This document shows, one piece after another, positions 38,748 through 41,162 of a DNA stretch of 55,906 bases. Positions within the stretch are counted from its first letter, which is position 1. Each line of letters begins with the position of its first letter. The notes under the pieces were generated by a model, which worked only from the letters and a program-made list of their open reading frames with translations, was not told the origin of the DNA and ran no database searches. The stretch is from a virus (lineage: Duplodnaviria; Caudoviricetes). The position numbers and the translations under genes are program-made. The stretch is taken from positions 1 through 55,906 of the IMG/VR virus record IMGVR_UViG_3300042395_000266. One strand, 5' to 3'.

Positions 38748-38785
38748 GAACACGGAAGATCAACAGCCGCGAACAAAGGAGGCGG
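38745..38785 (-). mobile_element. Degenerate attC half-site (R', L' and stem only)
   Basis: TGAGAAC-ACGGAA-GATCAAC; 18 bp identical to the site at 39708; no matching L''/R''. Confidence 0.6.
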
Positions 38786-38790
38786 CAAAC

Positions 38791-39060
38791 ATGAGGGACG
38801 TTGTGACACGCATCAACCGATGGCTGGAGGGCGAGGACGCTGCCGACGCAGACGAGACGCTGCATGACGCCCGCGACGAGATCGTCGCCCTTCGGGCGTT
38901 GCTGACGCGGCAGAGCGAGTCTGCGAGCGAGGCGGTGCGACTCATGGCAGACAACGCCAGCCGATACGGATTTCTGCTCGGCGGGCTGGAGATGGTCGCG
39001 GCCGGGCATACGACGGCGGATAAGGTGCTGGCGGCGGCGAAGGCAAAATACGGTGACTGA
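38791..39060 (+). CDS. Cassette-associated hypothetical protein
   Basis: SD AGGAGG inside the remnant stem; stop lies in the next R' box. Confidence 0.7.
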   Translation: MRDVVTRINRWLEGEDAADADETLHDARDEIVALRALLTRQSESASEAVRLMADNASRYGFLLGGLEMVAAGHTTADKVLAAAKAKYGD

Positions 39061-39147
39061 GAACACGCAGGATCAGGAGCGGCGAACAATGAGCGATGAC
39101 AACACCAAAGAGCCGGCCGAGCCGTCTCCTGCATCCGCTGGTTATGC
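39058..39147 (-). mobile_element. Integron attC site 1 (90 bp)
   Basis: Minus strand: R'' GCATAAC-5-L'' GATGCAGG...L' CCTGATC-6-R' GTTCTCA. Confidence 0.85.
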
Positions 39148-39400
39148 CGATGCTCGCCTAGTCGAGCGGGCGTTCAGAGAAGTGCTAGAGAGCGTAAACG
39201 AGGTGAGCCGCGCTCACGCCATGAACTACGCGGGGCTGCTGCACTCGCTGCTGGAAAAAGGCGTGATTACAGCGGAAGAACTCGAAGCAGGGCGAGAGAA
39301 AGCAAGGCCGGCAGTTGACAAGCATTTTGGGCCGACACCGGACGAAAGGAAGGCGAAGGATTTAGTTGAACTGCTTCGGGGACTCAAGGGCAAGGCATAA
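39089..39400 (+). CDS. Cassette gene, hypothetical (starts inside attC 1)
   Basis: SD AGGAG 39075-39079; TAA inside R' of attC 2; LLEKGVIT.EE motif. Confidence 0.7.
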   Translation: MSDDNTKEPAEPSPASAGYADARLVERAFREVLESVNEVSRAHAMNYAGLLHSLLEKGVITAEELEAGREKARPAVDKHFGPTPDERKAKDLVELLRGLKGKA

Positions 39401-39443
39401 CGCCAGCGATCAGCGGCTCGTCCGCTGCATCGCGTGGTTCTGT
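39395..39443 (-). mobile_element. Integron attC site 2 (49 bp)
   Basis: Minus strand: ACAGAAC-CACGC-GATGCAGC-GGACGAGCC-GCTGATC-GCTGGC-GTTATGC. Confidence 0.85.
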
Positions 39444-39462
39444 GGGCGTGGAGGATCAGACC

Positions 39463-39705
39463 GTGAAATGGATCAGCGTGAAAAAGCAATTGCCTGAGTG
39501 GGGTGAGCAAGTCATCGTCGCTCACCGTCGCTACGATTGGTCAAACGCCCGGCACAAGTGGACACGGCTCAAAAGGCTGGGCGTGAAGCCAGCCACGTTT
39601 TGGAGGCAGGACGAGAACGGGCCGCGATTTACTGATGGTGAAGATGTTGTGGCCGAGCCGGTGGCATGGATGCCGCTCCCGGCCCCGCCGAGCGACGGCA
39701 AGTAG
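39463..39705 (+). CDS. Cassette gene, DUF551-like
   Basis: SD GGAGG; KWISVKKQLPE...VAWMPLPAPP. Confidence 0.75.
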   Translation: MKWISVKKQLPEWGEQVIVAHRRYDWSNARHKWTRLKRLGVKPATFWRQDENGPRFTDGEDVVAEPVAWMPLPAPPSDGK

Positions 39706-39707
39706 CC

Positions 39708-39797
39708 ACAGAACACGGAAGATCAACGGCGGCGGACGCAAGGCATGACAACACCAAACGACATTGACCCGCCGTCCGTTGCATCGCTTGGTTCTGC
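39708..39797 (-). mobile_element. Integron attC site 3 (90 bp)
   Basis: Minus strand: GCAGAAC-CAAGC-GATGCAAC...GTTGATC-TTCCGT-GTTCTGT. Confidence 0.85.
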
Positions 39798-39820
39798 TGC
39801 GTTGGCCTCGGAGATGGGCA

Positions 39821-40696
39821 ATGCCTGAGCACCACTTCCTCAATCTCGGCGCTGGCGTCCAATCGACGGCGCTCTACCTCTTGAGTATCGACGGCGACGA
39901 GCCGGAAGTGCCGCGATTCGATGCCGCCATCTTCGCGGACACGCAGGAGGAGCCGGACGAGGTATACCGGCACCTGGAATGGCTGGAAAAGCAGGGCGGC
40001 CCGCCGATTGTGAGGACGACAGCGGGGCGGCTGGGCGCTGCCTTGGAGCAAGGCAGCGATGCGTCTGGCAATACCCGCACTGACGGCGGCCACTACGTTT
40101 CGATCCCGGCATTCACGGTGCATCCGCAGACCGGACAGAAGGGCATCATCCAGCGGCAATGCACAGCCGACTTCAAGGTCAAGCCGATTGAGCGACTGAT
40201 CCGCGAGCACTGCGGCGGGCAGTTCGGCAGGCCGCTGCCGAAAGAGGTCATCGTTCACCAATACATGGGGCTGTCGTTCGACGAGCCGAAGCGGGTCATC
40301 CGCGTCAAGGAACGATTCCTCGCCAAGCCGTCAAACTGGAAGGTTCATTTCCCGCTCTGGGAGATGCAATGGGATCGCGGCGACTGCAAATCGTACCTAC
40401 GCGAGCGTATGCCATACGAGGTGCCACGCTCGGCCTGCGTGTTCTGCCCGTTCAAGTCAGACGAGGAGTGGCGTCGGCTGAAGGCCGACGATCCCAAGGG
40501 CTGGGAGCGTGCCGTGCACATCGACAAGGTGTGCCGCACCGGCACCGGGCTGGACGCTCACCGATACTTGCACAAGGCGTGCGTGCCGCTGGACGAGGTT
40601 GACCTACGGCCCGCCGACGAGAAGAGCGGGCAGATGAACATGTTCCGGCACCTGCGCGGGTTTCAGGACGAGTGCGAAGGGTACTGCGGGAACTAG
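39821..40696 (+). CDS. Cassette gene, PAPS-reductase-like adenine nucleotide alpha-hydrolase
   Basis: LGAGVQST PP-loop, FADT, RQCT.DFK..PI, RSACVFCPF, terminal ECEGYC. Confidence 0.8.
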   Translation: MPEHHFLNLGAGVQSTALYLLSIDGDEPEVPRFDAAIFADTQEEPDEVYRHLEWLEKQGGPPIVRTTAGRLGAALEQGSDASGNTRTDGGHYVSIPAFTVHPQTGQKGIIQRQCTADFKVKPIERLIREHCGGQFGRPLPKEVIVHQYMGLSFDEPKRVIRVKERFLAKPSNWKVHFPLWEMQWDRGDCKSYLRERMPYEVPRSACVFCPFKSDEEWRRLKADDPKGWERAVHIDKVCRTGTGLDAHRYLHKACVPLDEVDLRPADEKSGQMNMFRHLRGFQDECEGYCGN

Positions 40697-40784
40697 CAGA
40701 ACGCCAGCGATCAGCGGCATCGAACACAGGAGATTGACACATGAGCGACGTTGATGAGATGTCCGCTGCATCGCGTGGTTCTGC
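40696..40784 (-). mobile_element. Integron attC site 4 (89 bp)
   Basis: Minus strand: GCAGAAC-CACGC-GATGCAGC...GCTGATC-GCTGGC-GTTCTGC. Confidence 0.85.
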
Positions 40785-40802
40785 AAACGGAGGAGACAAG
40801 AC

Positions 40803-41162
40803 GTGAGCGATAGTTGGTTCGACACGCTGGTCGCAAAGTGGATCGAACTTTGCGAACTTGCCAATATCGAAGTGGACAACATTGAACGGGCGAGGTCGTT
40901 CATTGACGGCGGCGCATACGAGTCGAAGGAATGGACGAAGCCGCCGTCGCTGCAAGCCTTGCAGGCGTGGTATCTCGCGGCCAGAGATTTGTCGGAGCAG
41001 CAGGATGACGGCGACGAACTGATGAGCAGCGAACTGTGGCGGATTTTGACGCTCACGGAGAAGGCGTACCAAATGGGCCTTGCCGATGCGGCGGCCAGAA
41101 CGGCGGATAACGCGCCGAGAATTCACGTCGAACGGCCGCGAAACAGCATGGCCCGTGATTAA
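40803..41162 (+). CDS. Cassette-associated hypothetical protein
   Basis: SD GGAGG; TAA inside the half-site R'. Confidence 0.65.
   Translation: MSDSWFDTLVAKWIELCELANIEVDNIERARSFIDGGAYESKEWTKPPSLQALQAWYLAARDLSEQQDDGDELMSSELWRILTLTEKAYQMGLADAAARTADNAPRIHVERPRNSMARD

Follow-up and report, generated by a model that had tools for sequence, protein, structure and literature searches.

Integron gene cassettes are usually described as a promoterless open reading frame (ORF) followed by its attC recombination site, and cassette expression then relies on the promoter of the integron platform and on the start signals of the ORF itself. In the tailed-phage record IMGVR_UViG_3300042395_000266 of the IMG/VR database (Duplodnaviria; Caudoviricetes), we describe here an array of imperfect hairpins, classified below as attC sites from their sequence, which occupies segment 38745-41187 and in which the hairpins stand 5' of genes. 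The record was analysed over its whole 55,906 bp, referred to as the window. From comparison with related loci, the longer hairpins of the array appear to supply the ribosome-binding site, the start codon and the first 15-20 codons of the gene that follows.

Several described systems come close to this arrangement. Clusters of attC sites lacking integron integrases (CALINs) have been reported in phages, where 17 of them are listed and some were recombined by IntI1 (Qi et al. 2023, PMC9892861, in its accessible text). In class 1 integrons, translation of the following cassette is promoted by short ORFs that lie within attC sites and by ORF-11/17/18 of attI1 (Jacquier et al. 2009 and Hanau-Bercot et al. 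2002, as cited in the available portions of PMC8876359 and PMC11511950). Finally, attC sites designed to lie inside coding sequences serve as peptide linkers (Nivina et al. 2020, PMC7439510, in the text available). Our literature search, which covered open main texts, returned no natural attC site holding the start of a gene and no inverted phage array of this kind.

The segment contains four full imperfect hairpins (sites 1 to 4) and two remnants reduced to a 5' half (sites 0 and 5), all on the coding (+) strand and all immediately 3' of a stop codon. An exact 18-mer of the 3' arm was found at 70 IMG/VR loci distributed on 68 contigs, and at 56 loci in a genome collection. Six of the latter carry the hairpin, all in bins labelled Planctomycetota or unclassified; the other 50 were rejected as chance or coding matches without a hairpin, and include a conserved gene and a repeated element of one bin. 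A structure-only scan (AAC...GTT plus 11 arm pairs) of the viral loci and the window produced 183 unique sites, from which the 105 with the family motif in their 3' arm were kept. These are divided into 41 short and 64 long forms. On contig C19 of genome G001, eight sites on the same strand (671-6102) adjoin an integron integrase gene (TIGR02249, 454.5 bits; cut-off 265), and the integron integrase of a second genome scored 428.8 bits. Window site 4 shares 86% identity in its arms with a chromosomal attC site of the integrase-adjacent G001 array, and 77% identity overall was found between a phage long site and a site of this array. Because the same family forms same-strand arrays beside an integron integrase gene in Planctomycetota, we conclude from sequence relatedness that the hairpins of the window are attC sites.

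The hairpins exceed what is expected by chance. Allowing at most 3 mismatches, the 21-nt 3' arm occurs three times in the window and was not recovered in 100 shuffles. With all 11 arm pairs required, the structure-only scan gave 2 matches (0.0 in shuffles); with at least 10 pairs it gave 3 (vs 0.3), and with at least 9 pairs 5 (vs 2.0), namely sites 1 to 4 and a match at 28313-28360 that is probably false. When the 64 long sites were aligned, 89.4% of the pair cells were paired, as compared to 78.2% in shuffles and 29-47% in slid controls. The arms also covary, with 148 cells changed on both sides vs 52 (0/500 shuffles). Across these 64 sites the AAC and GTT columns show little or no variation, and both triplets are present in the four window sites. 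Unpaired bases of the 3' arm include a T and a C with a 6-bp stem between them, as well as a G. The terminal loop varies from 5 nt to about 45 nt, and the distance from AAC to GTT is 82-88 nt in long forms and 45-48 nt in short forms. A search of the window against Rfam gave no match that reached the gathering score, and in 38300-41500 nothing of relevance appeared at E values up to 10.

In the attC bottom strand, extrahelical bases are found on the arm that faces the AAC triplet, the farthest one being a conserved T, with a 6-bp stem from the first to the last (PMC5027507, in the part of the text available). The phage sites fit this rule (as given in that source), with an extrahelical T and C opposite AAC, 6 bp apart. 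Chromosomal arrays were used as an independent guide to strand. All five ORFs tested on the strand opposite the hairpins had Pfam matches exceeding the cut-off (PemK, DUF4160, DUF2442, Fic and PIN), whereas none of five tested on the hairpin strand had one. At the phage loci, 87 of 97 family sites have an ORF on the hairpin strand, 60 codons or longer, whose stop lies at most 12 nt 5' of AAC. Since chromosomal genes run opposite to the hairpin strand, the phage sites are inverted, and from these comparisons we assign the coding (+) strand of the phage to the attC bottom strand. A preliminary description of this DNA, made from the letters alone, had already proposed that the sites are inverted and hence lie 5' of a gene; the extrahelical-base rule and the strand of the chromosomal genes both agree with it. 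It had also noted that upstream stop codons fall in or overlap the R box at five of six sites, as we found for the 7-nt R box; the exception is site 3, where TAG lies 9 nt before AAC.

Were the units to move by recombination inside the R box, the right half of one box and the left half of the box of the next site would belong to one cassette and should be complementary, with no such demand on the two halves found together at a site. This signature was looked for among family sites at most 4 kb apart, after de-duplication, which left 64 unique phage cassettes with lengths of 155-1598 nt. Complementarity within a cassette averaged 4.44 of 6 positions vs 3.09 of 6 for the two halves in situ; it was higher in 44 cassettes, lower in 11 and tied in 9 (Wilcoxon p = 5e-7). 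In 10,000 permutations the own-cassette mean was never attained, and the in-situ value is that of the permutation mean (3.09 vs 3.10). The unfiltered set gave 4.29 vs 2.89 (n = 112) and the chromosomal-array control 3.32 vs 2.14 (n = 22). This excess of own-cassette over in-situ pairing is not predicted by a hairpin moving as a self-contained unit.

The cassettes of the window scored 5, 6 and 5 of 6 within the cassette and 1, 2 and 4 in situ. The right R-box half of site 1 is GTTATGCC, and the 103-aa cassette which it opens ends in GGCATAA, followed by C, complementary to this half. Similarly, the DUF551 cassette ends in CCACAGAA, followed by C, and matches its own GTTCTGTGG, and the end of the PAPS-reductase-like cassette, AGCAGAA followed by C, matches its own GTTCTGCT. 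Written as partners, GTTATGCC goes with GGCATAAC and GTTCTGTGG with CCACAGAAC. The exception is the fourth cassette (119 aa), whose end does not match its own R box. A homologue, 94% identical, at locus L145 ends in a perfect match to its own R box, and the two 3' ends are unlike each other, so that the window cassette has a rearranged 3' end. Metagenome contigs from four lake-water runs contained joints 39061->39399 and 38748->39399 with a 3-nt overlap at AAC; these are weak at most, with shorter sides of 21-26 nt, and other joints had no overlap.

The ends of other arrays were also inspected. In L025 (330-420), L064 (790-860) and L145 (900-960) the last cassette stops exactly at an ...AGAAC half-box with unrelated sequence beyond it, and the array thus ends at the same AAC position; in two of the three loci a different GC-rich hairpin comes next.

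We then come to the start signals. An ATG inside the hairpin, in one fixed frame, was found in 46 of the 64 long sites. This frame reads the 3' arm as Ser-x-Ala-Ser-x-Gly-Ser and is open at 49 of the 64 sites, as compared to 14 and 15 for the other two frames. From 40 of the 46 ATG codons it stays open for at least 50 codons past GTT; among the six where it closes earlier are window sites 3 and 4 and the site of locus L066. Shine-Dalgarno (SD)-like 4-mers precede 38 of the 46 loop ATG codons, and in 15 cases the SD overlaps the paired 5' arm. The leaders fall into types that keep their sequence and length across unrelated genes: type A was counted 10 times over 8 protein clusters and type C 13 times over 9 clusters, these counts being taken from longest-frame picks in which 3 of 38 long-open cases use an alternative frame, whereas 46/64 and 40/46 refer to the fixed frame. 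None of the short sites contains a start. On this comparative evidence, the loop ATG and its SD in the long variants are best read as the real start of the downstream gene.

In many short-form sites (L016, L033, L036, L040, L053, L066 and others), a separate feature was observed: the 9 nt after the hairpin are conserved, TGAGCGTAG, and give two stop codons in the frame of the TGA of the upstream gene, 48 nt further on, followed by an SD and an ATG.

In the window, site 1 is the clearest case. Its loop contains ATG 39089, the start given in the preliminary description, and AGGAG (39075-39079) forms part of the paired 5' arm. As the site-1 frame passes through the 3' arm to 39400, the peptide MSDDNTKEPAEPSPASAGY would be encoded by the hairpin, in line with the earlier proposal that the N-terminus comes from the attC site. 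No relative of this gene was found in the viral contigs. Sites 3 and 4 differ, in that the ORF opened in the loop stops on the start of the next gene. The 27-codon ORF of site 3 (39745-39828, with its stop overlapping ATG 39821) and, at site 4, AGGAG (40728-40732), ATG 40741 and a 21-codon ORF ending in GTGA at 40803-40806 had been noted in the preliminary description and hold on the sequence; the junction at site 3 is a ATGCCTGA overlap. Like ORF-11, both have an SD and an ATG in the site and an ORF stop overlapping the next start. Between the site-3 AAC and the next site, the PAPS-reductase cassette of L066 and that of the window are 78% identical. The L066 cassette has a different loop type, yet a loop ORF of 25 codons with the same stop/ATG overlap, and the site-3 leader ORF is therefore conserved. 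Site 2, which the preliminary description did not discuss, has a 5-nt loop without an internal start codon; the DUF551 gene behind it likely starts at GTG 39463, after GGAGGA, GTG 39442 being also in frame. Both remnants keep the 5' arm, the SD and the ATG, which is exactly the start-bearing half, and a gene start is predicted there. Remnant site 0, where AGGAGG had been reported before ATG 38791 and indeed occurs (38777-38782), has lost its 3' arm, and 31 nt of its 5' arm and loop are identical to intact long sites of type D (L044 and L020). Remnant site 5 has no 3' arm either.

We regard the following explanation as probable. The locus would be an integron-cassette array without integrase, a CALIN, with inverted attC sites, lodged in an accessory and replication region of the phage, and its long loops would supply gene starts. 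A cassette would run from the C of AAC through the hairpin body and the gene to the stop codon embedded in the next R-box half, which would place the hairpin 5' of its own gene on the mRNA. The variable terminal loop of long variants would carry SD and ATG, with the 3' arm read in the fixed frame as a Ser/Ala/Gly-rich stretch. The attC site would in this manner provide the true N-terminus (site 1 and both remnants) or a leader ORF stopping on the start of the gene (sites 3 and 4). The array would be transcribed within a phage operon. A ribosome reaching the end of the upstream gene would halt 1-12 nt before AAC and melt the 5' arm, so that the loop ATG becomes accessible together with the SD, which in sites of the site-1 type is paired. 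Translation of the 3' arm would then hold the hairpin open, and either run into the gene or end on the gene's own start. Movement of the cassettes could be performed in trans by an integron integrase of the host.

Several observations weigh against this explanation, or restrict it. The integron integrase profile (TIGR02249) had no match in the phage record, whose sole tyrosine recombinase scored 15.7 bits against it (cut-off 265), and no integron integrase was found in five related viral records either. Four full sites inside 1.8 kb with no integron integrase nearby do correspond to a CALIN; a complete integron is not seen, intI being absent and sigma-70-like promoters being absent from 36000-43000 (0 vs 1.1 in shuffles), while attI was not searched for. 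The sites also depart from canonical attC. Their R box reads GTT(A/C)TG (in the window GTTATGC, GTTCTGT, GTTCTGC and GTTCTGC), unlike the consensus GTTRRRY with its RYYYAAC partner; deviating boxes such as GTTCGG, GTTCTG and GTTAGC also occur in integrase-adjacent chromosomal sites. The unpaired spacers are of 4 and 3 nt instead of the usual 5-6, the first extrahelical base is C where G is usual, and the short forms fall below the published range of 57-141 bp (PMC5027507, in its available part). The sample itself is biased to this subfamily, since relatives were recruited with an 18-mer from this window, and 78 of the 183 structure-only sites were discarded for lack of the family motif. Among 19 homologous pairs in which the hairpin body was compared with the downstream or upstream gene, the informative ones numbered only 3 and 2; they pointed the predicted way, but two of the three share a partner sequence and the pairs are too few. 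Concerning the starts, 41 of the 105 family sites are short and startless, and 18 of the 64 long sites lack the fixed-frame ATG. Of these 18, 16 are of the stem-extension type, the form found in chromosomal arrays. The start function is therefore a trait of variants and not of attC as such. The idea that the attC site acts as a portable ribosome-binding site and leader, advanced in the preliminary description, thus holds for long variants like site 1 and fails for the 41 short and 18 long sites. Lastly, at L145 the site-4 gene has a homologue that follows a short hairpin lacking a loop ORF and possesses an SD and an ATG of its own, which makes the site-4 leader dispensable.

This last observation, together with the good SD motifs that the genes after sites 3 and 4 possess and with the startless short sites, would also suit an alternative in which attC serves for recombination only. 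Starts within hairpins would be a by-product of compaction, because a site located 5' of the gene leaves no other room for a start region; there would be neither coupling nor regulation, and the short leader ORFs would be accidental. We consider this alternative unlikely, given that the fixed frame runs open into the gene in most cases, that leader types are conserved in sequence and length on unrelated genes, that the site-3 leader ORF and its overlap are kept in a diverged relative with a different loop, and that both decayed sites retain precisely the half with SD and ATG.

The near-constant length and sequence of the leader peptides of each type on unrelated proteins could also indicate that the peptides themselves matter, as functional tags for targeting, packaging or turnover added to many accessory proteins, with the nucleic-acid hairpin being secondary. 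This appears quite improbable, as the short forms of the element encode nothing, the two arms show base-pair covariation, the peptides are low-complexity stretches of Ser, Ala, Gly and Asp, and at sites 3 and 4 and in L066 the peptide ends ahead of the gene. Least probable is the proposal that the hairpins are phage RNA elements (processing sites, REP-like mRNA stabilisers or regulator-binding sites) only resembling attC: strict co-orientation with the genes, a constant place right after stop codons, stable RNA folds and a phage without integron-type integrase speak for it, but the same family is arrayed beside an integron integrase gene, the R-box halves pair across the cassette, which is unpredicted for a self-contained hairpin, terminator-like sites are at chance level (5 vs 5.1 in shuffles), and neither an Rfam match nor a Y1 transposase was found. 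Mobilisation as a repetitive extragenic palindromic (REP) element by a REP-associated tyrosine transposase (RAYT), or of the IS200 type, was tried as a further candidate and rejected, the Y1 transposase family PF01797 having no match in the record and in-situ R-box pairing being at the permutation mean.

Returning to the inverted CALIN, the phage host is likely a member of the Planctomycetota. A broader scenario can be proposed more tentatively, with a chance that we place slightly below even: a large group of phages, probably living on Planctomycetota, would carry antisense cassettes that host integrases shuffle among phages and possibly chromosomal integrons, with attC sites serving one purpose on DNA and another on mRNA.

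Two side observations concern the distribution of the family. In the G001 C19 array (L140, 1-7900), the integrase gene is on the same strand as the cassette genes, and the cassettes are mostly toxin-antitoxin-like (PemK, DUF4160/DUF2442). In lake-water runs X6 and X10, the summed contig depth over 39321-39537 and 40623-40839 is 5-10x that of the flanks, which means that many more contigs in these communities carry the attC family.

The elements of the array are listed in the following table.

Table. Sites, leader ORFs and genes of the inverted array (window coordinates; SD, Shine-Dalgarno; fold column: arm pairs, minimum free energy of the RNA in kcal/mol, z score).
Feature	Coordinates	Strand	AAC-to-GTT span	Signals and remarks	Fold
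Upstream small ORF	38403..38747	+		start 38403 or 38463; stop inside R box of remnant site 0
Remnant site 0	38745..38793	+		TGA 38745-38747; AAC 38749-38751; 5' arm; AGGAGG 38777-38782; ATG 38791
Cassette gene, 89 aa	38791..39060	+		no family match; predicted start is loop ATG of remnant site 0
attC site 1, long, leader type C	39058..39146	+	39062-39143	TGA 39058-39060; AAC 39062-39064; GTT 39141-39143	10/11; -28.5; -2.0
Cassette gene, 103 aa	39089..39400	+		no family match; first 19 codons predicted from site 1
attC site 2, short	39398..39445	+	39399-39439	TAA 39398-39400 overlaps AAC 39399-39401; GTT 39437-39439	11/11; -25.4; -5.0
DUF551 cassette gene	39463..39705	+		PF04448, 31.3 bits
attC site 3, long	39703..39799	+	39712-39793	TAG 39703-39705; AAC 39712-39714; loop ATG 39745; GTT 39791-39793	9/11; -32.6; -2.95
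Leader ORF, 27 codons	39745..39828	+		starts in site-3 loop; TGA 39826-39828 overlaps ATG 39821
PAPS-reductase-like cassette gene	39821..40696	+		phrog_424, 138 bits; own GGAG 39810-39813
attC site 4, long, leader type A	40694..40786	+	40700-40780	TAG 40694-40696; AAC 40700-40702; GTT 40778-40780	11/11; -37.0; -3.6
Leader ORF in site 4, 21 codons	40741..40806	+		TGA overlaps GTG 40803 (GTGA 40803-40806)
Cassette gene, 119 aa	40803..41162	+		own GGAGGAG
Remnant site 5	41160..41187	+		TAA 41160-41162 overlaps AAC 41161-41163; 5' arm; AAGG; ATG 41185
Small gene, 73 aa, behind remnant 5	41185..41406	+		last unit before GDP-mannose 4,6-dehydratase gene

Several small cassette proteins contain a Leu-rich motif, L..LL.RL, at their end, just before the R-box stop, or within them (38711-38742, 38883-38914, 39360-39395, 41300-41330 and many other loci), which suggests paralogous families among the cassettes.

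The IMG/VR record, which comes from a lake-water community, is linear and about 99% complete by estimate. It codes for a large terminase, a portal, a major head protein, helicases and a primase, and for an Xer-like tyrosine recombinase on the minus strand (26461-27342). On one side of the array is a DNA methylase gene (36135-37037), on the other a GDP-mannose 4,6-dehydratase gene (41403-42398). A second family of intergenic repeats, unrelated to the hairpins, occupies the minus strand at 50000-55474, where one or two copies of the 16-nt motif CCCCGA.CGTGGAAAC, then an SD of the GAGGAGAG type and an ATG, precede every gene of a leftward operon; five tandem copies at 55354-55474 adjoin a promoter-like stretch. 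From 55475 to the end of the record (55906), units of 33 and 41 nt are interspersed with runs of the 8-nt unit GGTCGTGC, and this array may be an origin, a packaging region or a genome end. Finally, a 1275-codon ORF (12432-16259), without PHROG match and similar in size and position to a tape-measure protein, contains four or five tandem repeats of 87 nt (29 codons) at 13213-13647.

Repeated intergenic elements are also found in T4-type phages, as promoter/stem-loop 'mobile regulatory cassettes', and in cluster K mycobacteriophages, as start-associated sequences. Both occur on either side of small accessory genes, in plastic regions, with a presumed role in expression and in shuffling. Unlike the sites described here, they are not attC-like and are not known to have a site-specific recombinase family or a cassette-end signature.

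The phage sites share with known attC sites, cassettes and CALINs an imperfect hairpin with AAC and GTT triplets, extrahelical bases and a variable loop, as well as same-strand arrays spaced by one ORF, R-box halves belonging to neighbouring cassettes and the lack of an integrase nearby (available text of PMC9892861 and of Cury et al. 2016, PMC4889954). As opposed to known CALINs, they are inverted relative to genes across a whole family of viral contigs, have an R box other than GTTRRRY and include undersized short forms. Section 3.4 of Qi et al. (PMC9892861) makes no mention of starts inside attC sites.

The att-site ORFs of class 1 integrons are another close parallel. In the accessible text of the reports cited above, these ORFs also combine an SD and an ATG in the site with a short ORF whose end lies at the next start or close to it, termination-reinitiation is proposed to overcome the hairpin, and a cassette protein with a foreign N-terminus is described as well. 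However, attC sites have their usual orientation in class 1 integrons: there the mRNA contains the top strand and a site is located 3' of the gene to which it belongs, whereas the phage mRNA would contain the bottom strand, 5' of its own gene. Furthermore, unlike class 1 short ORFs, the ORF of most phage long sites would continue without stop as the N-terminus of the protein. In this respect the phage sites would resemble the synthetic linker attC sites, which the ribosome reads through and which encode a flexible, linker-like peptide (PMC7439510, in the part available); the phage sites differ in being natural and N-terminal and in including the start signals.

In the broader, more tentative scenario proposed above, attC would act on DNA as a structure-specific recombination site and on the mRNA as a transferable translation start region with a linker-like N-terminal peptide, and any ORF joined to such a site would arrive with start signals and be coupled to the preceding gene. 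If the explanation favoured here is correct, the known set of phage CALINs would grow from 17 (PMC9892861, as far as its accessible text lists them) to at least 68 viral contigs; these are tied by sequence to integrons of one bacterial phylum, so that exchange of cassettes between phages and integrons becomes testable. A structure-specific DNA recombination site would double as a coding and translation-initiation element, a dual role described so far only by design (available text of PMC7439510) or in the form of short helper ORFs in class 1 integrons.

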